From: an uncultured Anaerolineales bacterium
GTDB lineage: Bacteria > Chloroflexota > Anaerolineae > B4-G1
NCBI GenBank assembly: GCA_964575455.1
Contig: CAZNRX010000001.1
Span: forward strand, 112,527 to 176,526
Direction of reading: 5' to 3'
Length of the DNA: 64,000 bases
The position numbers and the translations under genes were made by a program. The notes beneath the pieces were generated by a model. The model made no database searches. It was not told the DNA's origin and saw only the letters and a program-made list of their open reading frames with translations. Shown here piece by piece: positions 6,157 through 62,544 of this stretch; the stretch's first letter is position 1, and every line of letters starts with the position of its first letter.

Positions 6157-9100
6157 TCAGGTCGCGGCAGCTTCCAGCAATCTCTCCACTCGGTACTCGG
6201 ATGCTGCCTCGGCTGCCTGTAGCGCCTCGATCACCTCGTAGCAGCTCGTGATTCTCTCGGCCGACGCCCGCTCCGGATCTGCGGCGATCGCCACCGTGGC
6301 GACCACCATCATCCACCACAGCAACTGCTCGAATGCCTCCTCATTGAACCAGAGCACGTCCTGGTACCGGTTGACCTGGAGGAAGCGCTGCACCTCGTCG
6401 TCCTCCAGCCATGAGCGAAGCACCTGGAAGGGCCGGTTCTTGGAGCCCTCACCTAGCTCGAACCAGCGCTGGTGCGTGGTCAGCACCTTGATGGTCGTCA
6501 CGGCCCACCAGGACGATCTCTCGTCGAGGCCCAGGTCCTGGATGGCGCCCGCCGTGATCTTGCCCAGGAGCCATTCGTCCTGCCAGCTGCGGCTGATCCC
6601 CGCAAAAGCCCTCGGTGACTGCGTCGCTCCCGCCTCCATCCTGCCCAGCGCGTGGCTGAAAAGCCAGCCCAGCAGCGTGGACCAGGCCCGGGGATCGTCG
6701 TCTAGGCCCACCTCCGGCACCTCCGTTGGTCCGTCCTGGATGTACTCGGCCACGTGGTCCGGCACCGACAGGCGGCTGCCTATGGTGGGCAGATCCCAAA
6801 CCACCTCCAGCTCCCGGCGTATCTGCCGGGCCAGCGACTCCTCATCGTCACCGCCGTCGGCCCGCGACTTGATCTCTTGGAGAAGCCGGAGCGTTTGTGC
6901 CTCCACCTCGTCTGCCAGCTCCTCACGTCCCTCTGCTCCTCTGCCCCTCTGCTCCCCCGCTCCTCCGCTCTCCTGCTTCCTGGCCTCCATCAGCCTCCGG
7001 AACGTCTCGGCGTTAACCAGCTCCCGAAACGGCCCATGCACCGGCTGGAGGAGCACCTCCTTGAGCGCTTCGTCGATGCTGGGGACCCCGCGTCCGTCGA
7101 GGTAGGCGGTCAGCTGGCCGTAGGGGCGCTCCACTGAGTCGCGGACCTGGCGGAAGTCGAGGAAGACGTGGTATTTGTAGGCGCTTAGCTCGGCGTACAG
7201 CCCTTTCCCGTGCAGGTCCTCGTTGCTGCGGATGTACTCAAGCCCGTTGACGTGATCCCGGAAGATGGTGTAGGTCTTAGACCCATTCTCGTCGTCGCGC
7301 AGATCCAACCCCTCGCCCAGCGATCGCTGAACCAGCTGTTTCTCGTCCTCCCCGGTCTTAGCCGCTTCGCTTCCACGGACCGCGTAGGCGACCGACGTGC
7401 GCACCCAGCCCCGCGTCTCGGCGTACCGGTTGTGGTAGAGCACCAGAGCCCGCTCGTCGCCCACGTGGTTGGAGTAGGCGAAGACGTCCTCGTTCACGTG
7501 GCCGTCGGGCGTGAAGAAGTCGTAGAGCAGAAAGTTCTCGACGTCGGCGAAGAGATACCGCTTGTGGAGCAGCGGGAAGATCTCCCGCTCGTGGCGCTCC
7601 ACCAGGTAGGTGTCCGGGGTCTCGTCCCAGTAGGCGCGGCGGTACTCCATGCCGTACTTCTCCGTGTACCCCTCAACCTGGCCATGGCCGAACATGGGCA
7701 GGCCTGGCACGGTGGCCAGCATGGTGCAGATGCCGAAGTACTTGTCGCCCTTGCCGAACTGATCCACGGCCGTGCGCTCGTCGGGGTTGTTCATGAAGTT
7801 GACGTAGCGCTTCATGATGCGCGGATCGAACGCCAGGGTGTTCTTCATCACGCTGCGGTACTTGGCGTTATCCTCGTCGCGCAGCATGTTCATGAAGGCG
7901 CTGTTATAGACGCGGTGCATGCCCAGCGTGCGCACGAAGTAGCCCTCCATCAGCCAGAACGCCTCGGCCAGCAGCAGCGTGTCCGGCACCTCCTCCGCCA
8001 CCCGGTCCACCACCTGGCGCCAGAACTCCTCCGGCATGAGCTCGTCCAGCTGCTGCCTGGTCATCCCGTGCTCCGCTCGCGAGGGGATGTCGCCGCCGGA
8101 ACCAGGCTCCGGGAACCAGAGCCTCTGGTAGTGCTTCTTCGCCAGCGTCATGGCCGCGTCGAAGCGGATGATAGGGAACTTGTGCGCCACGTGGAGGATC
8201 ATCTGAATCACGGCCTCGCGCACCTCCTCCTTCAGGAAGTTGAGCTGCGCCGTGTCGTTCCACGGCATGCTGGTGCCGTCGTTGCCGTGGTAGATGTACC
8301 GCTCGTCACCGGTCCAGTGGTCCACACGTTTGAAGACCACGGCGGCGTCGCTGCGGTCGTAGTAGCCGTCCTCCAGGTAGATCCCCACGCGATCGTCATT
8401 GCACAGATCCTCGCCGGTGAAGGAGTAGGACGGGAATGGACTGTAGTCCAGCGAGATGAAGCGCTCGGGGTGCTCGATCACCCAGCGGGAGTCGATGCCC
8501 ATGTGGTTGGGCACCATATCGCTGGCCAGCCGGATGCCCCGCCGCCAGGCGCGGTCGCGCAGGCTCTGGTACCCCTCTTCGCCGCCCAGATCGTCCGCCA
8601 CGCGGTAGTCGTCCACGGAGTAGGCGGAGGCCACCGCCTCGGGGTTGCCCATGATCTGCTTGATGCGCTGCGAGGCCGAGCTCCGCTCCCACAAGCCGAT
8701 GAGCCATAGGCTGGTGAAGCCCCGCCGGGCCAGGATGTCCAGCTCCTCGTCCGGTATGTCACCCAAACGGGTGATTGAGCGTTCATACTTCTTCGAAAGC
8801 TGATCGAGCCATACGTAGATGTTCTTGGCCAGCAGCACCACCTTCGGCATCCAGTCCTGGTCGGGGCTGAAGCGCTCATACTCTGCCTCCCTGAACTCAT
8901 AGACCCGGCTCGGACCGGGGCCGAGGAAGGTGGCCTTCTCCTCCTCGGCGATCAGGTCCAGGCTGCTGAGCAGACGATAGAGATACTTGCCCAGGAGCGA
9001 GCCCCAGCGCTCCTGCATGAACGCCAGCTGCCCCGAGAGGGAGTGGGGCGATCTGCGGGCGGGGGCGCTCAACATGTCGATCAGGTTCTCGTGGTCGGGA

Positions 9101-9738: not shown

Positions 9739-9787
9739 AGATGGCTCCATGCGTGATGGTAATGCGTAATGCGTGATGCGCAATGTC

Positions 9788-11920
9788 TCAAGCGTCGAGG
9801 AGGTCGATGGTCAGCTGCACGTCCCAGGGAAGCTGGGGTTGCAGGGGCATCGCCCACCAGAGCAGGGTGCACGTGCCCTGATAGACGCGCTCGTACCCCG
9901 CTTCGGAGTTGGAGATCGCCTCCAGCGGGAAGTGCCACAAGTTTGTCGGTCGGTTGACGGCTACCTTCACCTCGCCCGCCAGGTTGGGCAGCGTGGACCC
10001 GACCCTGAAGCTCGTCATCTCGTCATACCCGGCGAAGTCGCTCAGGCTGCGGCGCTGCGAGCCCACCGTCAGGTGGCCGTAGCGGCTGTCGCCGCCCACG
10101 ATCCCCCAGTTGAACTCCACGCCAAAGCGCAGGTCGGCCGGTATCTCGTTCAGGTTGATCACGCGGTAGCCAACCGCGAGCTGTGATGACCCGGCCTGCA
10201 CCGAGATCCTTTTCTCCACCCGCACGGGGAACGGCACCTCGCCGGCCCACACGGTGCCCTCCCGCGTCAGGGTCAGCCTCGCCTCTCCGTCACATTCCCT
10301 CACCTCGGCCCGGTAGCGTTGATCGACGAAGTCGCCCTGCTCGCCGTAGTGCGCCTGGTAGAAGCTCTCCGGCGTGGTGTCATCCTGGAGGAAGTGGTCG
10401 AGGAGCGCCACCCGGCGGTGCCAGTCGTAGAAGAGGCGCGTGTGGACGTCGGGCTCCTTGACCCTTGCCCCGCGGGGGATCTCCTCCTCACCGGGCAGGA
10501 AGAGGCGGCCGTGCTCCGCCGCCCGACGCAGCGCTTCGTGGTACCCCTCGCGGTGGCGCGTCATCGTGTTGAGCAGGTTGTAGCGGCGGTCTCGCCAGTC
10601 CCACTCCACCAAGGCGCCGCCGTAGGACGGCTTGAACACCAGGACCTGTCGGTCGGTGTTGAGGATGATCTCCTCCTCGGTGTCGGCGTCCAGATCTCCC
10701 CGTTCAACCCGCACCCAGGTCTCGCTCTCGCTCCCGGCGCGATCGGCCAGCTCCTCCGCGGCGATCAGATGGGCGTAGTTCGCGACGCGGATGTGGAAGA
10801 GGTAGATGCCGCCGAACAGGCCGTGCCAGTAGCCGCAGCTGCACTGCGCGGACCAGGTGTGATCCAGCGCCTGGTCCTTCGCCGCCCCCTCCGGCATCTG
10901 GTGGACCTTGCGGCTGACCCAGAGCATCTTCTTATGCATCTGGTTGACCTCGTCGTAGCGGCCCAGGAAGGAGCGCCATACGCCACCTTTGATGAACTGG
11001 AGCACGTCCTCCCGCTCTTCGTCCTTCAGCTCGCGTCGCACCCCGCTGAGGCTGGCAAACGCGTCCGGCGGGAGGGCCCAGTGCATCATCTCCTCGTAGG
11101 ACGCGCAGGGGAGATAGATCCGACCCAGAGGCGGCAGCTTGGCCGTCAGCTCCCCCAGCGGGCGGGTCTGCAGCCAGTCGCTGTTCTCCTCCAGCGCGGT
11201 GAAGAAGCGGTCGACCCAGCCATTCTCGCCCCAGCAGTGCTCCCATGTGCTGGGCCAGAGGCCGAACTTCTCACCGTCGTCGCCGCAGACAGCGACGCCG
11301 CCGGGATGTCGCTCCGCCTGCTCCCGGAGCCAGGCGATCACAAGCCCAACCGGGCGCCATGGGATGGCGTAGCGTAGGTACATCACGTTGCCGAAGACCT
11401 TTAGCGGCAGCCCCTCTTCCTCGGTGACGTAGTAGCCGAACAGGTCATCGTCGCTCAGGCCGGCCATCTTGAAGGGGGTGTCGTCGAGCAGGGTGTACTC
11501 GACCCCGCCCTGGGCGAGCGCCTTGGGAAGGTGGGGTTCCCAGATCCGCTCGGCGATCCACGCGCCCCTCGGCACCACCCCGAAACGTTCCATCAGGTGC
11601 TGGTTCATCTTGCGGAGCTGTCCCAGCTTGTCCCGCTCCGGGATGGCGATGAATATCGGCTCGTAGTAGCCGCCGGTGAGGAGCTCCACCTGCTCCCGCG
11701 TCACTAGATCGCCCAGCCGATCCAGGTGGTCGGGTTGATTGACGTGCAGCCAATCGAGCAGGGGGCCGCTGTAGTGGAGCCCGAGGCGAATGCCCGGATG
11801 GCGCTCCAGGGTCTCCAGCATGGGATCGTAGGCCTTATGTGTGGCCTCGGCAAAGACGTGGTCGAAGTTGCCCACCGGCTGGTGGTTATGAATGACCAGG
11901 GAGAGTGTCAACTTAGACAT
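9788..11920 (-). CDS. Glycoside hydrolase family 57 protein (4-alpha-glucanotransferase/amylopullulanase-like), 711 aa.
   Basis: N-terminal 'LSLVIHNHQPVGNF' GH57 signature. Start at MSKLTL (ATG at 11920). Confidence 0.8.
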   Translation of the reverse strand: MSKLTLSLVIHNHQPVGNFDHVFAEATHKAYDPMLETLERHPGIRLGLHYSGPLLDWLHVNQPDHLDRLGDLVTREQVELLTGGYYEPIFIAIPERDKLGQLRKMNQHLMERFGVVPRGAWIAERIWEPHLPKALAQGGVEYTLLDDTPFKMAGLSDDDLFGYYVTEEEGLPLKVFGNVMYLRYAIPWRPVGLVIAWLREQAERHPGGVAVCGDDGEKFGLWPSTWEHCWGENGWVDRFFTALEENSDWLQTRPLGELTAKLPPLGRIYLPCASYEEMMHWALPPDAFASLSGVRRELKDEEREDVLQFIKGGVWRSFLGRYDEVNQMHKKMLWVSRKVHQMPEGAAKDQALDHTWSAQCSCGYWHGLFGGIYLFHIRVANYAHLIAAEELADRAGSESETWVRVERGDLDADTEEEIILNTDRQVLVFKPSYGGALVEWDWRDRRYNLLNTMTRHREGYHEALRRAAEHGRLFLPGEEEIPRGARVKEPDVHTRLFYDWHRRVALLDHFLQDDTTPESFYQAHYGEQGDFVDQRYRAEVRECDGEARLTLTREGTVWAGEVPFPVRVEKRISVQAGSSQLAVGYRVINLNEIPADLRFGVEFNWGIVGGDSRYGHLTVGSQRRSLSDFAGYDEMTSFRVGSTLPNLAGEVKVAVNRPTNLWHFPLEAISNSEAGYERVYQGTCTLLWWAMPLQPQLPWDVQLTIDLLDA

Positions 11921-13966: not shown

Positions 13967-14713
13967 ATGCATAAACGAGTGCTCTTGGTGGGGCTGCTGC
14001 TCCTGACGGGCTTGCTTGCCCTGGCCCCCGCGGGTCGGGCGGCCCCGCTCTTCCAGGCTCAGGCGATGATCACCTATCCGACGGACGGGACCACCGTCAG
14101 CGGCCAGGTTCAGGTCAAGGGGGTGGCCACGCACCCCAACATGGACTTCTACCAGGTCCGCTATGCATCGGGTGCGCAGCCGGCAGCCGACTCGCAGTGG
14201 CAGGACTTCGTCATCGTCGAGGGGCAGCAGGTGGACGGCGACGTGTTGGGCACCTGGGACACGACGCAGATCCCCGATGGTCAGTACACGCTGGCGTTGG
14301 CCGTCTGGGGTGTGAACGACGCCAATAACCCATACCTCTTCTTCGCCACGAACATCACCGTCAACAACACCAACCCGGTCGCCACGCCGACACCGGAGGA
14401 GGAGCCGACCGAGGTGCCGCCTACGCCCACGCTCGGCCCTAGCCCCACCCCGGCGGCCGTCGAACAGCCCGCCACGTCTACGCCGCGCCCCACGCCGACC
14501 CTGGTGGCCAGTCTTCTGCCCACGCCGACCATCAGCGCCAGTGAGGAGCCCGCTGTCTCCCTGAACGTAGGGCAGATTCGCGACGGTTTCTGCGTGGGAG
14601 GGCTGATCGCGGTGCTCCTGCTCTCACTCTGGGGCCTCTACCTGCTGGCGAAAGCCGGCTTGCGCTGGTTCCTGCGTCAGCGTTCGCAGTCATCCTCGGG
14701 TGCAAGGCACTGA
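13967..14713 (+). CDS. Secreted/cell-surface protein: signal peptide, beta-rich domain, Pro/Thr-rich linker, C-terminal TM anchor.
   Basis: N-terminal 'LLVGLLLLTGLLALAPA' signal, a 'PTPTLGPSPTPAA...PTPT' linker and a C-terminal hydrophobic segment 'GLIAVLLLSLWGLYLLA'. RBS GAGGTA. Confidence 0.6.
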   Translation: MHKRVLLVGLLLLTGLLALAPAGRAAPLFQAQAMITYPTDGTTVSGQVQVKGVATHPNMDFYQVRYASGAQPAADSQWQDFVIVEGQQVDGDVLGTWDTTQIPDGQYTLALAVWGVNDANNPYLFFATNITVNNTNPVATPTPEEEPTEVPPTPTLGPSPTPAAVEQPATSTPRPTPTLVASLLPTPTISASEEPAVSLNVGQIRDGFCVGGLIAVLLLSLWGLYLLAKAGLRWFLRQRSQSSSGARH

Positions 14714-27760: not shown

Positions 27761-27857
27761 TGTGCAAGTGGGCGAGCGCCCAAGTGCCAACCAGCGGCGC
27801 TAGGCCAGCGTCCCAACGTCTAGACGTTACAACGTTCAAACGTTCCAACGAGTTGTT

Positions 27858-30543: not shown

Positions 30544-31633
30544 TGACGCTGGCGTCGGCGCCCGTCCCCGGGCCGACATAGACGTCACCTACATCGGCGG
30601 AGAAGGAGGCATTGAGGAGACACTGGCCAAGCGGGCGGATGTTCGCTTCGTCGGCATTCCGGCCGGCGGTGTGCACGGTCTGGCGCCGTGGCGGGCGGTA
30701 CAGAACCTTTTCAAGTTGATTCGCGGCTGGTGGGCTGCCTACCGGCTTGGGCGTCGAGCCCCTGTGCGCCCATCGGCGCTCTTCGCCACCGGCGGCTACG
30801 CCAGCGTGCCCGTGGCGCTGGCGGCCTGGATGCTGCGCGTGCCCATTCTCGTCTACCTGCCCGACGTGGAGCCAGGGCTCGCCGTTCGCTTCATCGCCCG
30901 GCTGGCGTCGAAGGTTGCGGTCACGGTGGAGGACTCGCGGGCCTACTTCCCTGACCACAAGGTTGTGGTGAGCGGGTACCCGGTGCGGGCGGCCTTCCGG
31001 CGCATCCAGAGTGACGTGGGGCAGGTGGAGGCGCGGCGAACGCTGGGGCTGGCATCCCTGGCTCTGCAGGGGTCTGTGACCCCTGACGAGGATCCTGTCC
31101 TTCTCGTCATGGGCGGGAGCCGTGGGGCGCGCAGCATCAATCGCGCCTTGAGTGAGATTCTGGAGCAGGTACTGGAGATGGCGCAGGTGATACATTTGAC
31201 TGGCGAGCTGGATTGGGACTGGGCCTCCGAGCAGCGGGACGCGCTGCCCGCACGGCTGCGGGAGCGCTATGCTGCCTTTCCCTACCTGCACGAGATGGGG
31301 TATGCGCTGACCACTGCGGATCTCGCGCTCTGTCGGGCGGGAGCCTCGACCCTGGGGGAGCTTCCCTTCTTCGGGCTGCCCGCCATTCTGGTGCCGTACC
31401 CGCACGCATGGCGCTATCAGCGGGTGAACGCGGCATGGTTGACGGAGCGAAGGGCGGCGGTCACGTTGAGGGATGAGCGCTTGGAGGACGACTTGCTTTC
31501 GACACTGCGGAATCTCTTGACGGACGAAGAACGGCTGGCGCAGATGGGGGATCGGGCTCGGGCGCTCTCTCGGCCCGATGCAGCGGCTCGTCTGGCGGAG
31601 GCCTTCCTTAACACGAAGATCACGAAACCCTAG
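30458..31633 (+). CDS. murG: Undecaprenyldiphospho-muramoylpentapeptide beta-N-acetylglucosaminyltransferase MurG.
   Basis: 'WIAGGGTGGHVYPGLAV' GT28 N-terminus. GGAGGAGAG RBS at 30441-30449. Confidence 0.9.
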   Translation: MRVWIAGGGTGGHVYPGLAVVQALRAENDDAGVGARPRADIDVTYIGGEGGIEETLAKRADVRFVGIPAGGVHGLAPWRAVQNLFKLIRGWWAAYRLGRRAPVRPSALFATGGYASVPVALAAWMLRVPILVYLPDVEPGLAVRFIARLASKVAVTVEDSRAYFPDHKVVVSGYPVRAAFRRIQSDVGQVEARRTLGLASLALQGSVTPDEDPVLLVMGGSRGARSINRALSEILEQVLEMAQVIHLTGELDWDWASEQRDALPARLRERYAAFPYLHEMGYALTTADLALCRAGASTLGELPFFGLPAILVPYPHAWRYQRVNAAWLTERRAAVTLRDERLEDDLLSTLRNLLTDEERLAQMGDRARALSRPDAAARLAEAFLNTKITKP

Positions 31634-33888: not shown

Positions 33889-34854
33889 ATGAGGGGGCGT
33901 TCAGTGGATGACGCAGTGACCGCCTCGGCGGGTGCAGCGCAGCACGTCCCCGAACCGGCCGCACTGGATGCCCTGGCCGAAGCGCTGGGGCCGCGCGTGC
34001 AGCGGGGGGTGCGGCTGGCGCGTTTCATCGCGATGGGCGTCGGCGGGCCGGCCGATCTCTTGACGGTCGTCGAGAGCTCGGATGGTCTGGCTCGCGCGGT
34101 TGGAGCGGCCCGGCGACACGCCGTCCCCTTCCGGGTGCTGGGCGGCGGCTGCAACGTGCTGGTCGCCGATCAAGGCGTGCGAGGGTTGGTGATTGTCAAT
34201 CGGGCGGCGTCCGTCTCGTTCGAGGACGGTGTGGTACACGCGGAGTCTGGGATGAAGCTGGCCTTTCTGGCGCGAAAGGCGGTCGATAGCGGTCTGGGCG
34301 GTTTGGCCTGGGCTGCTGGCCTGCCGGGTACCGTCGGTGGGGCTGTCGTGGGGAACGCGGGTGCCTTCGATGGCGACATTGCGGGCACGCTGCGCAGCGG
34401 TGCGGTGCTGGAGCCCAATGGCGAGGTTGTGGAGAGGGAGAACGCGTGGTTTGACTTCGCCTATCGCAGCAGTCGGCTCAAGGGGGACGCCGTCACCCGG
34501 CACGTGGTGCTGGCGGCTGCGTTTGAGCTGGAGCCGGGCGAGAGGGCCGCGTTGAGGGCGCGAGCCGACGAGGTGTTGGCATGGCGCAGGGCACACCATC
34601 CCTCGGGCGCTACGATGGGCTCGACGTTCAAGAACTCACCGGATCACTACGCCGGACAGCTCGTCGAACAGGCGGGCCTGAAGGGTTATCGCGTTGGTGG
34701 GGCCAGGATCTCGGAGCAGCACGCCAATTTTCTGATCAACGATGGGGACGCCACGGCCAGCGATGTGTTGGCTCTCATCGAGCACGCTCAGGCAGAGGTG
34801 GCGCGGCAGTTTGGCGTGGAGCTTGCGCTGGAGATCGAGTTGCTGGGCTGGTGA
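33889..34854 (+). CDS. murB: UDP-N-acetylenolpyruvoylglucosamine reductase MurB.
   Basis: FAD-binding 'MGVGGPADLL' and 'LGGGCNVLV' motifs. The start is uncertain because the reading frame stays open upstream. Confidence 0.85.
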   Translation: MRGRSVDDAVTASAGAAQHVPEPAALDALAEALGPRVQRGVRLARFIAMGVGGPADLLTVVESSDGLARAVGAARRHAVPFRVLGGGCNVLVADQGVRGLVIVNRAASVSFEDGVVHAESGMKLAFLARKAVDSGLGGLAWAAGLPGTVGGAVVGNAGAFDGDIAGTLRSGAVLEPNGEVVERENAWFDFAYRSSRLKGDAVTRHVVLAAAFELEPGERAALRARADEVLAWRRAHHPSGATMGSTFKNSPDHYAGQLVEQAGLKGYRVGGARISEQHANFLINDGDATASDVLALIEHAQAEVARQFGVELALEIELLGW

Positions 34855-34913
34855 ACACGAAGTGTACGAAACATGACACGAAGTGCGCGAATGCGGGGAG
34901 GGAGGATCTGTTG

Positions 34914-36086
34914 ATGCGCAGGATCCGTGTGGGGGTTATCTTCGGTGGGTGTTCAGGGGAGCATGAGGTGTCGCTTCAGTCTGCCCGGTCCGTTATGGAC
35001 GCCATGGACAAGGAGAAGTATGAGGTCGTGCCCGTCGGTATCACCAAAGATGGCCGCTGGATCGCGTCAGGCGACCCGATGCGAGCTCTGAGGACCGGAG
35101 ATTTCAGCGCCAGCCAGCCCGCCGCGCTGCTGAGCGATCCCGGGTCGACGGGCGATCTCGCCCAGGTAGCCGGTTCAACGCAGTCCCCGCGGCAGAGATT
35201 GATGCGTCTTGATGAGAGAGGCCAGGCGATAGAAGCGACCCCGCTGGCGCAGCTCGACGTCGTCTTCCCGGTCCTTCATGGACCCTATGGCGAGGACGGC
35301 ACCGTCCAGGGCCTGCTTGAGTTGGCCGGGCTTCCCTACGTCGGCGCCCCGGTGACCGCCTCTGCGGTGGCGATGGATAAGGTGATCTTCAAGGACGTGA
35401 TGCGCGCGCACGGGTTGCCCATTGTGGAGCACGTGATGGTGAAGCGCAAGACGTGGGAGGCCGATCCCGAGAGCATCCTGGCCCAGGTCGAGGAGCGGTT
35501 TGCGTATCCGGTCTTCACCAAGCCAGCCAATCTTGGGTCGAGCGTCGGCATCTCCAAGTGTCACGAACGGGCCGGGTTAGGGGCTGGCCTGCGGGAGGCG
35601 GCCCGCTACGACCGGAAGCTGCTCGTCGAGCCGGCTGTGCCAGCGGCACGAGAGATTGAGGTCAGCGTCCTGGGCAATGATGATCTGGTCGCTTCCGTTC
35701 CTGGGGAGATCGTCCCCAGCCGCGAGTTCTACAGCTACGAGGCCAAGTACATGGACGTCGGCGAGGAGGCCTCCGATCTGTTGATCCCCGCCCCCCTCTC
35801 TCCAGAGATGACCCGGCGCGTGCAGGATATCGCGGTGCAGACCTACCGCGCTATCGACTGCGCCGGTATGGCGCGCGTCGATTTCCTGCTCTCGGGCGAG
35901 ACAGAGGCGTTGTACGTGAACGAGGTTAATACCATCCCTGGCTTCACCAGCATCAGCATGTACCCTAAGCTGTGGGAGGCCAGCGGTCTGCCCTACCCGG
36001 AGCTGATCGATCGCTTGATTGAGCTGGCGCTCGAGCGCCAGCGCGATAAGGCCCGCATAGAGATATCGTATCGAACCGGGGAGTGA
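34914..36086 (+). CDS. ddl: D-alanine--D-alanine ligase.
   Basis: 'IRVGVIFGGCSGEHEVSLQSA' N-terminus and ATP-grasp motifs. GGGAGGGAGGA RBS at 34896-34906. The listed ORF's first 111 codons overlap murB and the repeat array and are not coding. Confidence 0.88.
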   Translation: MRRIRVGVIFGGCSGEHEVSLQSARSVMDAMDKEKYEVVPVGITKDGRWIASGDPMRALRTGDFSASQPAALLSDPGSTGDLAQVAGSTQSPRQRLMRLDERGQAIEATPLAQLDVVFPVLHGPYGEDGTVQGLLELAGLPYVGAPVTASAVAMDKVIFKDVMRAHGLPIVEHVMVKRKTWEADPESILAQVEERFAYPVFTKPANLGSSVGISKCHERAGLGAGLREAARYDRKLLVEPAVPAAREIEVSVLGNDDLVASVPGEIVPSREFYSYEAKYMDVGEEASDLLIPAPLSPEMTRRVQDIAVQTYRAIDCAGMARVDFLLSGETEALYVNEVNTIPGFTSISMYPKLWEASGLPYPELIDRLIELALERQRDKARIEISYRTGE

Positions 36087-36981: not shown

Positions 36982-37075
36982 AACGGGACACGAAAGGCGC
37001 GAAGAACGACACGAAAGGCGCAAAGCACGACGCGAAGGACGCGAAGGATGAAGGGCACGAATGGGGTGCAGACCG
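36982..37075 (+). repeat. Phased CACGAA-type direct-repeat array (21-bp units 'gacacgaaaggcgcgaagaac' x2 plus degenerate copies) in the ftsQ-ftsA gap.
   Basis: Units at 36988-37008 and 37009-37029 differ by 2 nt, then 'gacgcgaaggacgcgaaggatgaagggcacgaatgg'. CGAA cores recur every 10-11 bp. Confidence 0.85.
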
Positions 37076-38337: not shown

Positions 38338-38430
38338 CGCGAAGGGCACGAAACAGAAGACGAAGAGCGTGAAATAGAGCACGAAGGGCACGAAGCACGA
38401 AACACACGAAACACTATGGGCACGAGATAG
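38338..38430 (+). repeat. Second phased CACGAA/CGAAG repeat array (ftsA-ftsZ intergenic region).
   Basis: 'cgcgaagggcacgaaacagaagacgaagagcgtgaaatagagcacgaagggcacgaagcacgaaacacacgaaacac' with cores spaced ~10 bp. Confidence 0.85.
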
Positions 38431-43149: not shown

Positions 43150-43272
43150 GGTGCGTTGGTGCATTGCACGTGCCGTGCGTGCGGGCCACCTGGCGGAGTA
43201 CGGTGCGTTGCACGTGCTGTGCGTGCGGGCCACCTGGCGGAGTACGGTGCGTTGCACGTGCCGTGCGTGCGA
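43150..43272 (+). repeat. Tandem repeat, ~44-bp unit x2.7 (ggtgcgttgcacgtgcYgtgcgtgcgggccacctggcggagtac), each copy carrying the palindrome GCACGTGC.
   Basis: Copies at 43150-43201 (with an 8-bp internal duplication), 43202-43245 and 43246-43272 (partial). GCACGTGC at 43166, 43210 and 43254, exactly 44 bp apart. Confidence 0.9.
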
Positions 43273-43559: not shown

Positions 43560-43700
43560 GCTGGCGCGGCAGGTGGGATTCGACATAGAGGAGCGATGGG
43601 AGAGTGATCGGGTTTTTCGTCTCTCACTGCGCAAAGCGTGAGATGGGTCGACAGAGGGCGTGCCGATGATGGAAGCAATTTCAGTGAAGGAGGATAGACG

Positions 43701-44477
43701 GTGGAGGAGATGACGACGATGGCGTCGCTGCGAGAGGTTTTTACGTTTCCTTTTCGCGGTCCCGACTGGAAGCAGCCCTTCATCATCGGGTCCGTGCTAC
43801 TGATCGTGAGCTTCTTCATCCCGATCCTGCCGCTGATCTTCGTCTGCGGCTACGTGCTCGTGGTGATGCGTCAGGCCATCCGGGGGAATGAGCTCACCCT
43901 GCCGCGTTGGGACGACTGGGGCAAGCTGGCGGGGGACGGCCTGCGCGCCATGCTGGTTGGCTTCATCTACCTGCTGCCGGGGCTGTTGGTCGCGTCTGGC
44001 GGCTTTGCGCTATACCTTGCGACCACGTTTGCTATGCCCTTCGCCATCGAGGCTGGAGACGAAACCCTCTGGCCGCTCCTCTTCTTCGGCAGCTTCGCCA
44101 TTATGTTCCTCTCGATGTTTCTCGGGACCCTGCTCACGCTGTTAGGGGCGATTCCACTGCCGATAGCCACTGCGCACTTCATTGACGAGGACGACCTGTC
44201 GGCCGCTTTTCGATTCCGTCAGTGGTGGCGGCTGCTGCGCGCGAACCCGATGGGCGTCTTCATCGCCTGGGTGATGGTGGCTGGGCTGATGGCCATCGTC
44301 TATCTGGTCGTCTTGCTGGCCTACTACACACTTGTGCTGTGCTGCGCGGTCCCGTTCCTGGCGAGTCCCATCGGCTTCTACGTCCTGCTGGTGAGCGCCG
44401 CCATCTTTGGGCGCACCTATCGGGAGAGCTGGCGGATGGTGGCGGACAGCCGTGTTGCAGAGAAAAACGGGCCGTGA
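43701..44477 (+). CDS. Polytopic membrane protein (DUF4013-like), 258 aa.
   Basis: 6-7 TM helices with the conserved-looking '[10 protein letters not shown]' and '[11 protein letters not shown]' segments. GGAGGAG RBS. Immediately upstream of nrdJ. Confidence 0.55.
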
Positions 44478-48058: not shown

Positions 48059-48099
48059 CGCGTCACCTCCTAAACACGAAAACCACGAACTACGCTGCT

Positions 48100-48366
48100 C
48101 TATGTGAGTGCCCGGAACTGGCCCACAGCCTCGATGTCCACAGGCACGCCATCCAACTCATGCGGTACGATGTCCTTTGCCTTGAGCTTCGAACGGGGTA
48201 CCTTGTGCGTCACCGAGACGACGATGGCTGGTTCGTCCGTTAGCCTCCCACGCCGTCTGCGAAACCCGATGCCTACGCCAACCACGTTAGCCTTCCGCAT
48301 CAGCCTACCCTCGTGCTTCGTCTTGACGCGTCGGAGCCGCTTCATCTGTTCCTTCGATACTGGCAT
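48100..48366 (-). CDS. Stand-alone 88-aa protein homologous to the N-terminal domain of the adjacent S1-like peptidase.
   Basis: 'NVVGVGIGFRRRRGRLTDEPAIVVSVTHKVPRSKLKAKDIVPHELDGVPVDIEAVG' aligns with the protease N-domain. GGAGGAG RBS 7 nt before the ATG at 48366. The longer 317-aa listed ORF upstream of this Met is GC-rich antisense. Confidence 0.6.
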   Translation of the reverse strand: MPVSKEQMKRLRRVKTKHEGRLMRKANVVGVGIGFRRRRGRLTDEPAIVVSVTHKVPRSKLKAKDIVPHELDGVPVDIEAVGQFRALT

Positions 48367-57145: not shown

Positions 57146-57186
57146 CTTCCGTTAGATACGAAGAGCGCGAAACACGGAGGCACGAA

Positions 57187-58161
57187 TCATGAAGGCCTCG
57201 AATCGTAGGGGGGCGAGGGCTCTACCCCGATCGAATCCGCCAATTCCTTCAGCTGTGCCATGGCTTGTTGCAGCGTCGCTTTCATCTGGGAGGCCCGCAC
57301 CTCAGAACGCTCCGCTCCCTGCTGGGCGAGGAATGCCCCTACGCGGCCCAGGGCCTCATTCGCCGCCAGAAACTCGCCCAGGCCCGGGGGACCGACCTGT
57401 CCTGGCTGCAATTGATAGGCCGCTCGCTGCGGGACATCCCACATCTGCGCCTCGCCTGCCGAGTGCGGGCTCGACCACCCGCTTGCCACAGATTCTCCCA
57501 ACTGTGGCAGCGACTGCTGATAGGCGCCGATCCCCAATGACCTCCTGACCTTCTCCTCGACGAACGCAAGAGCGCTGTTATCCCGGACGTAGTTCAAGTC
57601 GTTGGTGTCGATGACCAGCAGAGCCTTCGTGCCCTTCGCGTCCCTTTTCGCGCCTTTCGTGTTCTTGCTGGCGAAGTGGGCCTCGTAAGCCTCTCTCACC
57701 ATAGCGATATAGTCGCGATCCATCTCCCGCTCGTATGGGCGGTCGCGCGCCGCGATGCGCGCCATCAGCGTGTCTGTGTCGGCCTTGAGATAGATCACCA
57801 GATCGGGAACGGCGATGCGATCCGCGAGCAGAGCATATAGCCTTCGGTACATCTCTAGCTCATCGCCCTCCAGGTTCAGACGGGCGAAGAGGGCGTCCTT
57901 GCCGAACGTGTAGTCGCCAATCAGGGGTTTGTTCGCCGTCAGCGACGGTATCTCCTGTTGCTGGCGGTAGCGGCTCAGGAGGAAGAACAACTGCGTCTGG
58001 AAGGCGTAGCGGGCGCGATCGCCGTAGAAGCTTGAGAGGAATGGGTTCTCCTCAAAGGCCTCCAAAAGTAGCTCTGCCTCGAAGCGCGGCTGCAGGAGGC
58101 GGGCCAGCGTCGTCTTGCCCACTCCGATCGGCCCTTCGATGGCCAGGAAAAAGGGTCTCAT
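57187..58161 (-). CDS. Deoxynucleoside kinase paralogue with a ~130-aa C-terminal extension and a repeat-derived internal insertion.
   Basis: 'IEGPIGVGKTTLA' P-loop. An 11-aa insertion 'KNTKGAKRDAKGT', encoded by CACGAA-family repeat DNA, is absent from the paralogue at 53226-53867. Confidence 0.8.
   Translation of the reverse strand: MRPFFLAIEGPIGVGKTTLARLLQPRFEAELLLEAFEENPFLSSFYGDRARYAFQTQLFFLLSRYRQQQEIPSLTANKPLIGDYTFGKDALFARLNLEGDELEMYRRLYALLADRIAVPDLVIYLKADTDTLMARIAARDRPYEREMDRDYIAMVREAYEAHFASKNTKGAKRDAKGTKALLVIDTNDLNYVRDNSALAFVEEKVRRSLGIGAYQQSLPQLGESVASGWSSPHSAGEAQMWDVPQRAAYQLQPGQVGPPGLGEFLAANEALGRVGAFLAQQGAERSEVRASQMKATLQQAMAQLKELADSIGVEPSPPYDSRPS
57623..57662 (-). repeat. CACGAA-family repeat copy embedded in-frame inside the deoxynucleoside kinase CDS.
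   Basis: Reverse complement 'aacacgaaaggcgcgaaaagggacgcgaagggcacgaagg' matches the ftsQ-ftsA unit 'gacacgaaaggcgcgaag'. Confidence 0.8.
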
Positions 58162-59742: not shown

Positions 59743-61164
59743 CTAGGCATCGAAGTAGAGCTCCATCTCGTAGGGATGGGGGCGGTTACGGACCTGATAA
59801 TACTCCTCGTCCATCTTGAACGCGGTCCACCGCTTGATGAGATCCTCTGTGAAGACCTCATCGACCAGCAGGAAGTCGTGGTCCTCCTCCAGCGCCTCCA
59901 GTGACTCCTTCAGGGAGCTGGGCAGCGGCTTGATCTCCGCTCGTCTCCTTTCCGACCACGAGAAGATGTCCGCATCGATTGGCCCAAAGCCCGCCTCGCT
60001 CGGGTCAATCTGGCGGCGCACCCCGTCCAGGCCCGCCAGGAGCTGCCCCGCCAGCGTCAGGTAGACGTTGCACGTGGCGTCTGGGGGACGGAACTCGATG
60101 CGCGCCTCGTCAGGCTGCGTGGCGTAGCGCGGGATGCGCACCGCGGCGCTCCGGTTGCCGATGGAGAAGAACGCGTTGACCGGCGCCTCGTAGCCGGGCA
60201 CCAGCCGCCGGTAGGAGTTTGTGCTCGGGCTCGTCAGGCCCAGCAGTGCAGGGCCGTGGTGGAGCAGCCCGCCGATGTAGTAGAGGGCCGTCTCGCTCAT
60301 CAGCCCGTAGCCATCCGGATCGTAGAAGACGTTATGGCCGTCCTTGAACAGGTGCTGATGAAAGTGCATGCCGGAGCCCGCCTCGCCGTAGATCGGCTTG
60401 GGCATGAACGTGGCCGTCTGGCCGTGGTGGTGCGCCGTCATCTTCGTGACGTACTTGACGATCATGGTGGCGTCGCCAGCCTGCAGGAGGCCCATCAGCG
60501 GCGTCTCGATCTCGCACTGTCCCGGCCCGCCTACCTCGTGATGGTGGTACTTCACCGGGACGCCCATCGACTGCAGCTGGAGGCTCATCTCGCTGCGCAC
60601 GTTGTGGAGTGCATCCTTGGGGGGTATGGCGTGATAACCGCCGTGCAGCGGGATGTAGTGCCCGTGGCCCGCCACGCCGCTGCGCCACGTGGCCTCGCTC
60701 GACTCGACCCTGTAGCCTGCGCGGTTCATCTCATTCTCGTAGGCCACTGTGTCGAAGACGTAGAACTCAAACTCCGGCCCCCACAGGCTGCGGTCGGCGA
60801 TGCCGCTCTCCACCAGGTGCTTCTCCGCGCGGCGGGCCACGTTGCGCGGATCGTTGTCGAAGATCGCCTTCGTGTCTGCCTCCAACGTCGTACAGATGAA
60901 GCTGACCGTCGGCGCGTCGCAGAAGGGGTCTGCGAACCCGGTGGAGAGGTCCGGCACCAGAACCATGTCGCCGGCCTTGACGGACTTGAGACCGACCGCG
61001 GACCCGTCGAACCCCACTCCAGCCTCCATCAGCGCCGGCGTGAAACGTTCTCTCGGCACCGTGAGGTGGTGCCAGCGCCCCCACAGATCCGTGAACTTGA
61101 GATCGACCATCTGGATATCATTCGTCTCCACGTAGTTCCGAGCCTCTTCAAATGAACTGAACAT
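59743..61164 (-). CDS. glnA: Glutamine synthetase (type I-like).
   Basis: GS beta-grasp and catalytic domain motifs ('FDGSA', 'GPEFEFYVFD', 'KPIYGEAGSGMHFHQ', 'NVYLTLAG'). AAGGGGG RBS before MFSSFEE. Confidence 0.9.
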   Translation of the reverse strand: MFSSFEEARNYVETNDIQMVDLKFTDLWGRWHHLTVPRERFTPALMEAGVGFDGSAVGLKSVKAGDMVLVPDLSTGFADPFCDAPTVSFICTTLEADTKAIFDNDPRNVARRAEKHLVESGIADRSLWGPEFEFYVFDTVAYENEMNRAGYRVESSEATWRSGVAGHGHYIPLHGGYHAIPPKDALHNVRSEMSLQLQSMGVPVKYHHHEVGGPGQCEIETPLMGLLQAGDATMIVKYVTKMTAHHHGQTATFMPKPIYGEAGSGMHFHQHLFKDGHNVFYDPDGYGLMSETALYYIGGLLHHGPALLGLTSPSTNSYRRLVPGYEAPVNAFFSIGNRSAAVRIPRYATQPDEARIEFRPPDATCNVYLTLAGQLLAGLDGVRRQIDPSEAGFGPIDADIFSWSERRRAEIKPLPSSLKESLEALEEDHDFLLVDEVFTEDLIKRWTAFKMDEEYYQVRNRPHPYEMELYFDA

Positions 61165-61380
61165 CTCTGCCCCCTTTTCGTGCCCGTCATTTCGTGGGTG
61201 GTCCCCCTCTTGCATGTTGTTGGCTCATTTTCGCTCATGAGGGATCGTGGGTCGACGCAGTCACCCGAGATCCCGTCCAGAGCGCCGGATAGCCATATCC
61301 GGCGCGAGCAGAGTGGCAAATGTGGCGCGCTGCAACCCAGCAACACGCTACAGGGGGACCACCATTTCGTGAGCTTCGTC

Positions 61381-62544
61381 TCAATTCGTATCCTTCGTGT
61401 TGAGAATCTGACGATACACAGCCACGGTCCTGGCCGCTACGCTTTCCTGCGTGAACTGGCGCAGCACTCTCTCTCGTCCCCGTCTCGCCAGGCGGCGTGC
61501 GATCTCGGGTTCGTGCATCAACCGGACCAGATGGGCCTTGAGCGCTGCGACGTCGCCCTCCGGGAACACCAGACCGGCATCCCCGATGACGTGGGGAATC
61601 TCTCCGCAGTCGGAGCCGATGACCGGAACGCCACACGCCATCGCCTCGATCAGCACCCGCCCGAACTGCTCCACCCAGTTCGGTTGGGAGCGCGAGGGCA
61701 AGACGAGCGCGTCCAACTGCCGGTAGAACGCCGGCATGCGCAGCGACGGCAGCCACCCCTCGAATGTGACGTTGCCGGTCAACCCCAGGTGACGGGTCTG
61801 GGCCTCCAGTGCCTCCCTTTCGCTGCCGTCACCCAGGATGCGCAGGCGCCACGGCCCGGCTTCGAGCGCTGGGCCCTTCAAGTCCCCCACCGCTTCCAGC
61901 AGCAGATCGACACCCTTCTCCGGCACCAGACGGCCCACGTACCCGATGGCAAAGGGCGATCCCGGCGTGGCGCCTCGCACCGGAGACTCCTCTGAAGGCG
62001 ATGAGTTGGAGGGCGTGAAGATGGTGGGATCGACCCCAAACTGGGGGATGATGGCCATCGGCCCTTCGTAGCCCTTGTCCCGCCAAACCTCCGCTGCCCC
62101 CTCGCTGCCCACGATGGCGTAGTTGGTGTTCTGGAGGTTGTAGGACTCGATCAGTCGGAAGGGCAGTGGATACCGTCGGTTGAGGTTCTGCCAGGAGAAC
62201 CAGAGAGCTCGGGCGCTAGCTCGCTTGGCCATCCAGAGGGCGTGGGCCGTGCCGAGGTTGTAGGGTTCCTCATCAATGTGTACCACGTCGGGGGCGAACG
62301 ACCGCAAGCGTCGCCCCAGCCGGGGGTAGATGTGGAGGTGGAAGCTGCCGCTGAACGTGATGGGCTCCACCACCAACTCGTACCCGTCTGTGTGTGCGCG
62401 TTCCAGGTGGAGCACCCGGCTGGCCTCGCGCCAGGAGGGGGGGACGGCGACCATCAGGTCGACGTCGGGAAAGCGAGCGATCTCCTCAAGCTTCCGCTGG
62501 TAGGCGCCCACCAGACAGGCCTTGGAGACCATCAGAACGCGCAT
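61381..62544 (-). CDS. GT4-family glycosyltransferase (GT-B fold).
   Basis: 'EQFGRVLIEAMACGVPVIGSDCGEIPHVIGD' EX7E-type GT4 motif. The last codons (ILNTKDTN*) are encoded by CACGAA-repeat DNA. Confidence 0.85.
   Translation of the reverse strand: MRVLMVSKACLVGAYQRKLEEIARFPDVDLMVAVPPSWREASRVLHLERAHTDGYELVVEPITFSGSFHLHIYPRLGRRLRSFAPDVVHIDEEPYNLGTAHALWMAKRASARALWFSWQNLNRRYPLPFRLIESYNLQNTNYAIVGSEGAAEVWRDKGYEGPMAIIPQFGVDPTIFTPSNSSPSEESPVRGATPGSPFAIGYVGRLVPEKGVDLLLEAVGDLKGPALEAGPWRLRILGDGSEREALEAQTRHLGLTGNVTFEGWLPSLRMPAFYRQLDALVLPSRSQPNWVEQFGRVLIEAMACGVPVIGSDCGEIPHVIGDAGLVFPEGDVAALKAHLVRLMHEPEIARRLARRGRERVLRQFTQESVAARTVAVYRQILNTKDTN

Follow-up and report, generated by a model that had tools for sequence, protein, structure and literature searches.

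Degenerate CACGAA-core tandem repeats dispersed through an Anaerolineae genome and a MITE-like insertion that splits one array upstream of glnA

CACGAA-family repeats are short, degenerate tandem arrays scattered through a 64-kb stretch of DNA from an Anaerolineae (Chloroflexota) genome, referred to here as the window. The reading that best accounts for them, with a probability of roughly 0.6, is that they are lineage-specific, dispersed short tandem repeats comparable to the STRRs of cyanobacteria, and that they are mainly neutral or selfish. Nothing in the analysed data points to a specific regulatory role. The arrays occupy tolerant sites, namely the stop-proximal part of short intra-operon spacers, the final codons of genes, and loops on protein surfaces. 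They constitute a new lineage-specific family in Anaerolineae, of a repeat kind for which cyanobacteria and other filamentous bacteria provide earlier examples.

The CACGAA core occurs 51 times in the window, compared with 26.9 +/- 5.2 occurrences expected from dinucleotide shuffles, and none of 100 shuffles reached 51. With an array cluster defined as at least three [ACG]CGAA cores within 16 nt, eight clusters are found in the 64 kb versus 0.51 expected from Markov shuffles (maximum 3). The density of CACGAA is 2.36 per kb over approximately 7.2 kb of intergenic DNA and 0.60 per kb in genes. This roughly 4-fold difference rules out a uniform distribution across coding sequence and bears out the first-pass annotation in describing a dispersed family with a positional bias. 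Each unit combines a conserved core of 5-6 nt, with the array consensus (C/T/G)(A/G)CGAA(A/G), and a variable spacer of 3-6 nt, giving periods of 9, 12 or 21 nt. Core-to-core intervals measure 9 nt in 17 of 30 cases, 12 nt in five and 21 nt in two, and 25 of the 30 are divisible by 3. The tandem arrays are T-poor and degenerate: 39 units hold 20 different 3-nt spacers, and A or G alternates in the position before CGAA. TRF found periods of 21, 16 and 9 and picked up just three of the eight array loci. The arrays are free of stop codons in both orientations, and they always begin 0-10 nt past an upstream stop codon, with no fixed distance to the following start codon.

Eight array loci are present in the 64 kb when the two groups at the GT4-glnA junction are counted as one. 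The earlier estimate of at least eight did not list the arrays of the dcw cluster, the largest in the window. Four loci belong to that cluster, all on the plus strand. Array A (31610-31630) consists of two units (AACACGAAGATCACGAAACCC) that form the final seven codons of murG, ending in NTKITKP and the stop. Array B (34854-34895) has four units in the murB-ddl spacer, in sense orientation and 1 nt past the murB stop. Array C (36987-37065) comprises about eight units, including decayed ones, in sense orientation in the ftsQ-ftsA spacer, and shows a higher-order period of 21 nt (9+12; TRF period 21, 2.9 copies). Array D (38338-38425), with about nine units in sense orientation, lies in the ftsA-ftsZ spacer directly past the ftsA stop. 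Two further spacer arrays are located on the plus strand and are antisense to mRNA because the genes on either side are read from the minus strand. Array E (48072-48090) places two units in the 41 nt that separate a small ORF from the S1/trypsin-like protease gene, and Array F (57157-57186) has three units that fill the 41-nt spacer between the stop of the deoxynucleoside kinase (dNK) gene and the start of the hybrid histidine kinase gene. The first-pass annotation had located both correctly, but as plus-strand arrays they are antisense to these genes. Its statement that all copies are intergenic or gene-terminal holds as a strong bias, with one exception: Array G (57624-57664, minus strand) lies inside the dNK coding sequence, where four in-frame units encode the loop KNTKGAKRDAKGTKA. 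The eighth locus is the GT4-glnA junction. Sense loci outnumber antisense loci by 6 to 2, a lean that is not significant. A further candidate array at 43560-44221 was dropped as ordinary coding sequence.

At the GT4-glnA junction, the two groups of copies are halves of a single array. A MITE-like insertion parts them and has duplicated the unit CACGAAAT. The GT4 gene, on the minus strand at 61381-62544 (Pfam Glycos_transf_1), ends in NTKDTN, and glnA starts at 61164 on the same strand. The repeat strings quoted in the first-pass annotation are present where it placed them, and its observation that repeat units supply the terminal GT4 codons can be read directly in the sequence. The 5' half of the array, designated H/I (61364-61404, minus strand), contributes these codons, the stop and two further units. 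The 3' half (61171-61196, minus strand) carries the second CACGAAAT copy and the last unit, CACGAAAAGGGGG, which runs into the glnA Shine-Dalgarno sequence. Both groups are thus located upstream of glnA, and the apparent bracketing of this gene arises because an inserted element cut one array in two. The element (61197-61363, minus strand) is 167 nt long and is flanked by an 8-bp target-site duplication, with one CACGAAAT copy at 61364-61371, as the final unit of the 5' half, and the other at 61189-61196. Its terminal inverted repeats (GGTGGTCCCCCT...) are imperfect, 27 nt long and 85% complementary, and it folds with an MFE of -92.6 kcal/mol (z = -6.2). In the close relative L082, the array at this junction is uninterrupted and represents the empty insertion site. 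Terminal inverted repeats, a target-site duplication, an empty orthologous site and the lack of coding capacity are all shared with MITEs. Within the 64-kb window and a set of relative loci compared with it, a single copy is present, and neither a parent IS nor a transposase gene was found there; no plasmid matched it. An Rfam search of 61100-61450 in E-value mode returned a sole match with E = 0.99.

Comparison with relatives shows rapid turnover of the arrays, in which units are gained, lost and mutated. Locus L563, with 90-93% DNA identity to the window, carries arrays in all four of these dcw positions as well, although the unit numbers differ and CACGAA has decayed to CATGAA. No arrays are present in the same dcw spacers of L564 (FtsA 91%) and L565 (FtsA 88%), in which the RBS-proximal parts of the spacers are conserved. 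Correspondingly, MurG ends in NTKITKP in the window and L563, and in ...LLILP or ...LLRLP in L564 and L565. Arrays are also missing from both the GT4-glnA and the dNK-histidine kinase spacers of L568 and L569, and from the orthologous dNK-histidine kinase spacer of L081. A search of the genome collection with FtsZ recovered distant species only (at most 73% identity), which lack arrays. The CACGAA-family arrays arose recently, in the lineage of the window and its closest relatives.

The arrays could be understood as cis-acting RNA sites in operon mRNAs, acting as platforms for RNA-binding proteins or as unstructured ribosome 'standby' sites that tune ddl, ftsA, ftsZ and glnA. This appears unlikely, even though several observations are consistent with it. 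Six of the eight loci are in sense orientation in transcribed spacers, the core is retained despite variation in the 3 nt that follow it, and the last unit often merges with a Shine-Dalgarno sequence (CACGAAAAGGGGG in the window, TACGAAAGGAGGG in L082). Array segments fold weakly, at -0.08 to -0.19 kcal/mol/nt versus -0.27 to -0.40 kcal/mol/nt in array-less orthologous spacers, so that spacers with arrays are about half as structured. SD-like 5-mers occur at 4% of positions versus 0.9% expected. An array also persists at the GT4-glnA junction in distant clades, and an analogous role has been proposed in print for the TAACTGA repeats of Beggiatoaceae (PMC4679880). Against these points, two arrays are antisense and one is translated, the anchor is the upstream stop codon rather than the start codon, and SD-like 5-mers are entirely absent from the two large Arrays B and D, which led to the rejection of the arrays as additional Shine-Dalgarno sites. 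Folding does not differ from that of shuffled sequences (z from -1.5 to +1.2, about 0), and the arrays were accordingly rejected as structured RNA. At the gathering level, Rfam 15, including its glnA and glutamine leaders, gave no match in the whole window, nor did Rfam match any of 20 metagenomic array loci; a conserved fold is likewise lacking. Targets of TRAP-, CsrA- or Hfq-like proteins are expected on the transcribed strand and at a conserved leader position, but two of eight arrays are antisense and the spacers of L564, L565, L568 and L569 are array-less. The decay of cores in L563 and the absence of arrays in L564 and L565, in front of genes that are essential and conserved, argue in the same direction. 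The specific 5'-UTR function at the RNA level that had been suggested earlier is therefore not upheld, given the antisense, translated and stop-anchored arrays and the turnover of units at about 92% identity. No tRNA or tmRNA genes are present in the window.

The presence of both orientations fits a feature of DNA better than one of RNA. In such a case, the arrays would be iterated sites for a DNA-binding protein of the nucleoid or operator type, or footprints of the targeting and duplication activity of a transposon with 8-9-bp duplications. The sole inserted element observed has landed precisely within a unit, with duplication of CACGAAAT, the prevailing period of 9 nt is near a typical duplication length, and metagenomic CACGAA arrays show no preferred orientation relative to flanking genes (17 '+/+' vs 16 '-/-' among the matches listed). 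This explanation is nevertheless considered quite improbable. Spacing ranges between 7 and 16 nt without a fit to helical phasing, an 8-bp duplication predicts a period of 8 rather than 9 or 12, and the MITE-like element is a single copy accompanied by no transposase in the window and fetched loci. Moreover, the arrays are not conserved at orthologous positions, and no neighbouring gene family recurs among the 120 metagenomic loci listed, apart from 4-5 GxxExxY-type genes. CRISPR arrays, iterons, parS and rut sites were also rejected on anatomy, since units of this size are too small, their irregular spacing shows no helical phasing, and G exceeds C on the sense strand.

A third possibility is that the arrays are protein-coding, low-complexity modules that provide Thr-Lys-rich tails and linkers, with intergenic copies as decayed remnants or unannotated small ORFs. 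The divisibility of 25 of the 30 intervals by 3 would be expected in this case, and each of the window's four coding overlaps is read in the ACG-AAG (Thr-Lys) frame (NTKITKP in murG, NTKDTN in GT4, NTKGAKRDAKGTK in dNK). However, most array DNA lies past stop codons in conserved dcw operon spacers, two arrays are antisense, and other frames are used in L081 and L564, where the arrays read HEE and RRARK. Repeat-derived tails are missing in orthologues and differ in length between near-identical genes: GT4 ends in NTKDTN in the window and in NTKGTKRDTKGTN in P0121/L082, each followed by a stop. Taken together, a coding origin is highly improbable.

In the favoured reading, protein loops are among the sites that tolerate the arrays, helped by spacing in multiples of three and by reading frames that stay open on both strands. 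The loops of dNK orthologues that correspond to Array G (EGMCPAPYAASS, KDMGPAPRTSS and EATGPASRTSS) are unrelated to it, and L564 contains an in-frame repeat insertion into ddl, which encodes a conserved enzyme.

Short dispersed tandem repeats, described as STRRs, LSSRs or 'satellites', have been known in bacteria for more than 30 years. The CACGAA family resembles them in its head-to-tail unit, its recurrence at eight loci in 64 kb and its variation among close relatives. It is an atypical member because its units are degenerate, whereas the units of these repeats are near-identical. As far as the account in PMC4679880 covers them, STRRs are heptamers of filamentous cyanobacteria, and LSSR units measure 5-11 nt (Mrazek et al. 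2007, as summarised there). Within the same account, the features held in common with the CACGAA arrays are short head-to-tail units, many dispersed and mostly intergenic loci, a lineage-specific unit, sporadic taxon distribution, variable copy number, and the tolerance inside genes of units with a length divisible by 3. The differences from the repeats so described are the combination of a core with variable spacers (9, 12 and 21 nt) instead of a near-perfect heptamer, and the host, an Anaerolineae genome. TAACTGA heptamer direct repeats, for which a function in translational regulation has been proposed, are found in marine Beggiatoaceae, some cyanobacteria and Bacteroidetes (MacGregor 2015, PMC4679880). 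They too are grouped, with 2-6 copies or more per set, in operon intergenic regions, including those of ribosomal and other essential genes, with some copies within ORFs, and their hosts are likewise filamentous (PMC4679880). These sets mostly lie in forward orientation directly before start codons (PMC4679880), whereas the CACGAA arrays are stop-anchored, are found in either orientation and consist of degenerate units. Within the same phylum, (GATAGRA)n and other satellites of Chloroflexus aurantiacus, interpreted as evidence of satellite 'transposition' (Subirana & Messeguer 2019, PMC6749651), also form many dispersed intergenic arrays from one short unit. They differ in unit, period and class (Chloroflexia versus Anaerolineae), and the comparison of turnover between relatives has no counterpart in PMC6749651. 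REP/BIME elements share with the CACGAA arrays their short length, lineage specificity, both orientations and location in intra-operon spacers just past stop codons. REPs, however, are hairpin-forming imperfect palindromes that depend on RAYT transposases for their mobility, whereas the arrays described here are direct repeats without excess folding (z about 0), and their low energy per nucleotide sets them apart from such stable hairpins.

For a dispersed and largely neutral or selfish family, array growth and shrinkage would probably proceed through replication slippage or unequal recombination, and spread to new loci through copying, for example by ectopic template switching or gene conversion. 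Pure local slippage leaves unexplained both the occurrence of one unit at eight separate loci in 64 kb and the 9+12-nt opening shared by several arrays, and this recurrent architecture hints at copying between loci. The 12-16-mers common to different arrays exceed a unit-shuffled model about 2-fold, an excess that is not significant (P 0.07-0.2) and leaves block copying between arrays a conjecture. The main physical consequence of an array may be a purine-rich, U-poor spacer RNA with the reduced structure described above, which could incidentally favour translation initiation of the downstream gene.

Other short repeats follow the same pattern. Families of 7-8 nt (TACGCAT, GCAAGT and AACGTT) behave in the same way in the window genome and its relatives, as does AATGAAC in the more distant Anaerolineae L566 and L567, where heptamers of this sequence occupy the same GT4-glnA junction. 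Persistence of an array at this site over the deep divergence between the CACGAAR and AATGAAC clades could mean selection on the site. It has also been considered that the arrays are active, with each Anaerolineae lineage writing or homogenising its own unit, either by transposon insertion and excision, in which a duplication becomes a unit, or through a co-evolving binding protein. This is rather improbable; if true, it would amount to a lineage-specific post-transcriptional layer over the cell-division and nitrogen-assimilation operons of filamentous bacteria.

The loci compared form an unusually clean comparative series, which consists of an array-rich genome, a relative at about 92% identity with altered arrays, array-less relatives with 88-91% FtsA identity and a deeper clade with another unit. 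The series shows that such arrays are able to colonise spacers of the essential dcw operon, rewrite the C-termini of conserved enzymes, enter enzyme loops in frame and serve as landing sites for a MITE. For annotation, this means that repeat-derived tails, NTKDTN or MNNE... for example, do not count as conserved features, that ORF callers will over-extend genes through stop-free arrays, and that regulatory boxes should not be read into this genome's 'motifs upstream of glnA'.

Literature searches for the exact array strings gave no match. In viral contigs, the real core and two permuted cores each gave at least 120 matches, counts that provide no measure of enrichment and allow the three to be compared in qualitative terms. 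Among the 120 metagenomic loci listed, the biggest cluster of flanking proteins has 4 members and is GxxExxY/PDDEXK_3-like. Arrays of the CACGAA core are widespread in metagenomes and are often paired with an inverted array, which results in long hairpins. Such hairpin-forming pairs could mirror a broader, so far undescribed class of elements.

The CACGAA motif occurs 51 times in the window, a count never reached in 100 dinucleotide-preserving shuffles (26.9 ± 5.2). Its copies are also clustered: if a run is taken as three or more [ACG]CGAA cores on the same strand with neighbors up to 16 nt apart, the window has eight runs, where Markov shuffles average 0.51 and never exceed 3. On a rough gene map built from third-position GC content and Pfam matches, intergenic DNA (about 7.2 kb in total) carries 2.36 copies of CACGAA per kb and genes carry 0.60, and several genic copies are terminal codons of genes or part of a loop insertion in the deoxynucleoside kinase gene (dNK). 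Excess, clustering and intergenic density together mark the repeats as a real feature of this DNA, which has a G+C content of 64% and whose FtsZ, FtsA and glycosyltransferase (GT4) proteins are nearest to proteins from MAGs labelled Anaerolineae or Chloroflexota.

Eight array loci are found in the window once the two halves at the GT4–glnA junction are merged. Four sense arrays lie in the cell-division (dcw) cluster: array A (31610-31630) forms the last seven codons of murG (NTKITKP*), while B (34854-34895), C (36987-37065) and D (38338-38425) occupy the murB|ddl, ftsQ|ftsA and ftsA|ftsZ spacers, respectively. Two arrays are antisense, so that the mRNA reads UUCGUG: E (48072-48090), in the 41-nt spacer that precedes a trypsin-like protease gene, and F (57157-57186), which accounts for the whole 41-nt spacer from dNK to a GAF hybrid histidine kinase gene. 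The remaining sense arrays are G (57624-57664), in frame inside dNK, and H/I (61171-61196 and 61364-61404), between GT4 and glnA, where the strings quoted in the first-pass annotation were recovered on the minus strand (61162-61200 and 61362-61401). The proposal that all copies are intergenic or at gene termini thus describes most loci and fails for array G.

The repeat unit consists of a (C/T/G)(A/G)CGAA core followed by a variable 3-6 nt. CGAA is preceded by CA in 24 units, CG in 8, TA in 4 and GA in 3, and 20 different triplets follow the core among 39 units. Cores are 9 nt apart in 17 of 30 intervals, 12 nt in five and 21 nt in two (TRF reports a 21-nt period in array C), and 25 of the 30 distances are multiples of three. 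Arrays B, C, D and G, L082 (a contig from a close relative) and the ftsA|ftsZ array of L563 (another close relative) share a 9+12-nt opening pair; the rare 12-nt interval takes second place in four of six window arrays, for which a rough binomial estimate would put chance at about 0.01. Read from the sequence, every intergenic array starts 0-10 nt past the upstream stop codon in either orientation, with a variable distance to the downstream start codon. The arrays are poor in T, as in array D (A46 C25 G37 T6).

The copies near glnA had been taken to bracket that gene. They do not, because a 167-nt insert (61197-61363) splits a single array that is continuous in L082, where the junction reads AACACGAAGGG CACGAAAAGGGA CACGAAAGG CACGAATTGA GACGAAGAG TACGAAAGGAGGG caaagATG and the GT4 stop lies 27 nt from the glnA start. 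The L082 GT4 protein (P0121) belongs to the same 90%-identity cluster as that of the window and ends in NTKGTKRDTKGTN versus NTKDTN, and repeat units do supply the terminal GT4 codons, as had been claimed. Imperfect terminal inverted repeats of 27 nt bound the insert, which has a strong predicted fold (-92.6 kcal/mol, z = -6.2) and is flanked on both sides by the 8-bp CACGAAAT (61364-61371 and 61189-61196). Inverted-repeat termini, duplication of an 8-bp target site and an orthologous site that lacks the element together characterize MITE-type insertions, so the element appears to be of this type. One copy of the family at this junction owes its existence solely to duplication of a unit by the insertion. 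No second copy of the element was found in the window or the first set of comparison loci, and its region has neither an Rfam nor a plasmid match.

Array content changes rapidly among relatives. L563, a 65-kb contig from the same JGI sample as L082 (3300035158), is 97% identical to the window in FtsA and 90-93% in DNA, and carries arrays of different content at the four dcw positions occupied in the window: its ftsQ|ftsA array has about 4 units versus about 8, unit order differs in the ftsA|ftsZ array, and two murB|ddl cores have decayed to CATGAA. Further away, in L564 (GCA_964421785.1, FtsA 91%) and L565 (JGI 3300027962, FtsA 88%), unrelated sequence of similar length fills the dcw spacers at the array positions, and murG ends in LLILP* or LLRLP* versus NTKITKP* in the window. 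The RBS-proximal 30-70 nt of these spacers is conserved in all four genomes. The dNK loop reads KNTKGAKRDAKGTKA in the window, and relatives have EGMCPAPYAASS, KDMGPAPRTSS or EATGPASRTSS instead. Traces of the family persist in GCA_964421785.1: the GT4 tail NTKKKKRGHEEPE in its locus L081 is built of CACGAAG units, and ddl in L564 has an 18-codon insertion opening with two CACGAA units. L568 and L569 (GT4 79%) lack an array between GT4 and glnA, and their gene end ...ATCAACGAAACGTAA is a plausible seed for one. Variable loops of ddl, the D-Ala-D-Ala ligase gene, hold short insertions in the window (35151-35166), L564 (8661-8720) and L565 (8145-8190); GGCGATC(N0-3)TCGCCCAGG is present in the window and in L564, each time in a different loop, and L565 carries an 18-nt repeat encoding STKVTESTKVTES.

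An unlikely alternative is that the arrays act in cis on translation. SD-like 5-mers take up 4% of array positions overall versus 0.9% expected, but none occurs in array B or D. Predicted RNA folds of the arrays are no more stable than those of shuffled sequences (z -1.5 to +1.2); the arrays have no Rfam matches and are weakly structured in absolute terms because of their U-poor composition; the ftsA|ftsZ spacer folds at -0.12 kcal/mol/nt in the window and -0.15 in L563, versus -0.29 in L564 and -0.28 in L565. Low structure in the spacer may bring a mild benefit. An indispensable sequence-specific regulatory role is argued against by the occurrence of both orientations, stop-codon anchoring, core decay in L563 and orthologous spacers of essential operons that lack arrays.

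Other short repeats in the window and its relatives behave alike, so the CACGAA family is an example of rapid repeat turnover that is general in this clade. In L566 and L567, from more distant Anaerolineae (GT4 about 68%), AATGAAC heptamers (7092-7178 in L566) sit exactly at the GT4|glnA junction, followed by AACTGCT-type heptamers, and MNNE... tails matching AATGAAC heptamers occur in many database GT4 homologues. Within 21 kb of L567, AATGAAC arrays recur at four loci (11155-11215, 5289-5376, 7830-7859 and 14249-14274), and GCGAATT and CTCCTGC heptamers are present as well. On the minus strand of the window, about five copies of TACGCAT-type heptamers (9751-9787) fill the entire gap from the stop codon of one gene to the Shine-Dalgarno sequence of the next, co-directional one. 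The mraY|murD spacer (27761-27857) contains decayed GTGCAAGT octamers and NNAACGTT octamers; in L563, the relative at about 92% identity, the same spacer (743-799) contains seven clean octamers of the GCAAGT type, and GCAAGT octamers occur in another spacer of L565 (21028-21056). In all three genomes, the octamer arrays open directly after a TAG stop codon.

The nearest known systems are the STRR heptamers of cyanobacteria together with the LSSR (5-11-nt units) of Mrazek et al., both as reviewed in PMC4679880; the TAACTGA heptamer sets of Beggiatoaceae, for which translational regulation is a proposal, not demonstrated (PMC4679880); and a (GATAGRA)n satellite family in Chloroflexus aurantiacus (PMC6749651). 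The CACGAA family resembles all of these in dispersal, lineage specificity, intergenic bias and copy-number variability, but differs in its degenerate units, 9/12/21-nt periodicity and stop-codon anchoring. REP elements are palindromic whereas the CACGAA arrays are not, which rules out a REP-like identity. In an incomplete coverage of the literature, no description of such repeats in Anaerolineae was found. We favor, with a probability of roughly 0.6, an STRR/LSSR-like family in which units would be gained and lost through slippage, a putative copying step would carry them between loci, and arrays would be tolerated in spacers, gene tails and protein loops. A DNA-level or transposon-linked origin seems quite improbable.

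A JGI metagenome scan with the pattern ACGAANNNCACGAAN{1,7}ACGAAN{1,7}ACGAA returned at least 120 matches (L083-L202) on contigs of 33-70% G+C, a count that, like those of permuted-core controls in viral contigs, is a lower bound and no measure of CACGAA enrichment. Most matches combine the core with a variable spacer, and identical units occur in 11 of the 120 listed. The listed arrays are intergenic, in all gene-orientation contexts, and the 20 compared with Rfam have no match. In 42 of the 120 listed matches, two or more inverted TTCGT cores lie within 110 nt; many of these consist of a direct array and, 15-35 nt further on, an inverted (TTCGTG) one, which together form a long hairpin. No recurrent neighbor gene was found among the listed arrays beyond 4-5 GxxExxY/PDDEXK_3-like small genes. 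Contigs picked for a CACGAA array (576 kb) contain 8 secondary arrays of that family and 43 built on different cores, versus 2.6 arrays per 100 kb in unrelated genomes by the same criterion. This suggests that repeat-rich genomes exist, with CACGAA one of many possible units.

The window also holds an intergenic 44-nt tandem repeat at 43158-43271 (2.6 copies, 95% identity; GGTGCGTTGCACGTGCCGTGCGTGCGGGCCACCTGGCGGAGTAC). Among neighboring genes, dNK encodes a protein extended at its C terminus by about 120 residues (57187-57560, minus strand), a stretch that lacks a Pfam match and is conserved in L081, L568, L569 and L567. Immediately upstream of the trypsin-like protease gene, with nothing but antisense array E in between, is a small ORF of about 88 codons (48100-48365, minus strand), which may encode a pro-peptide-like partner.
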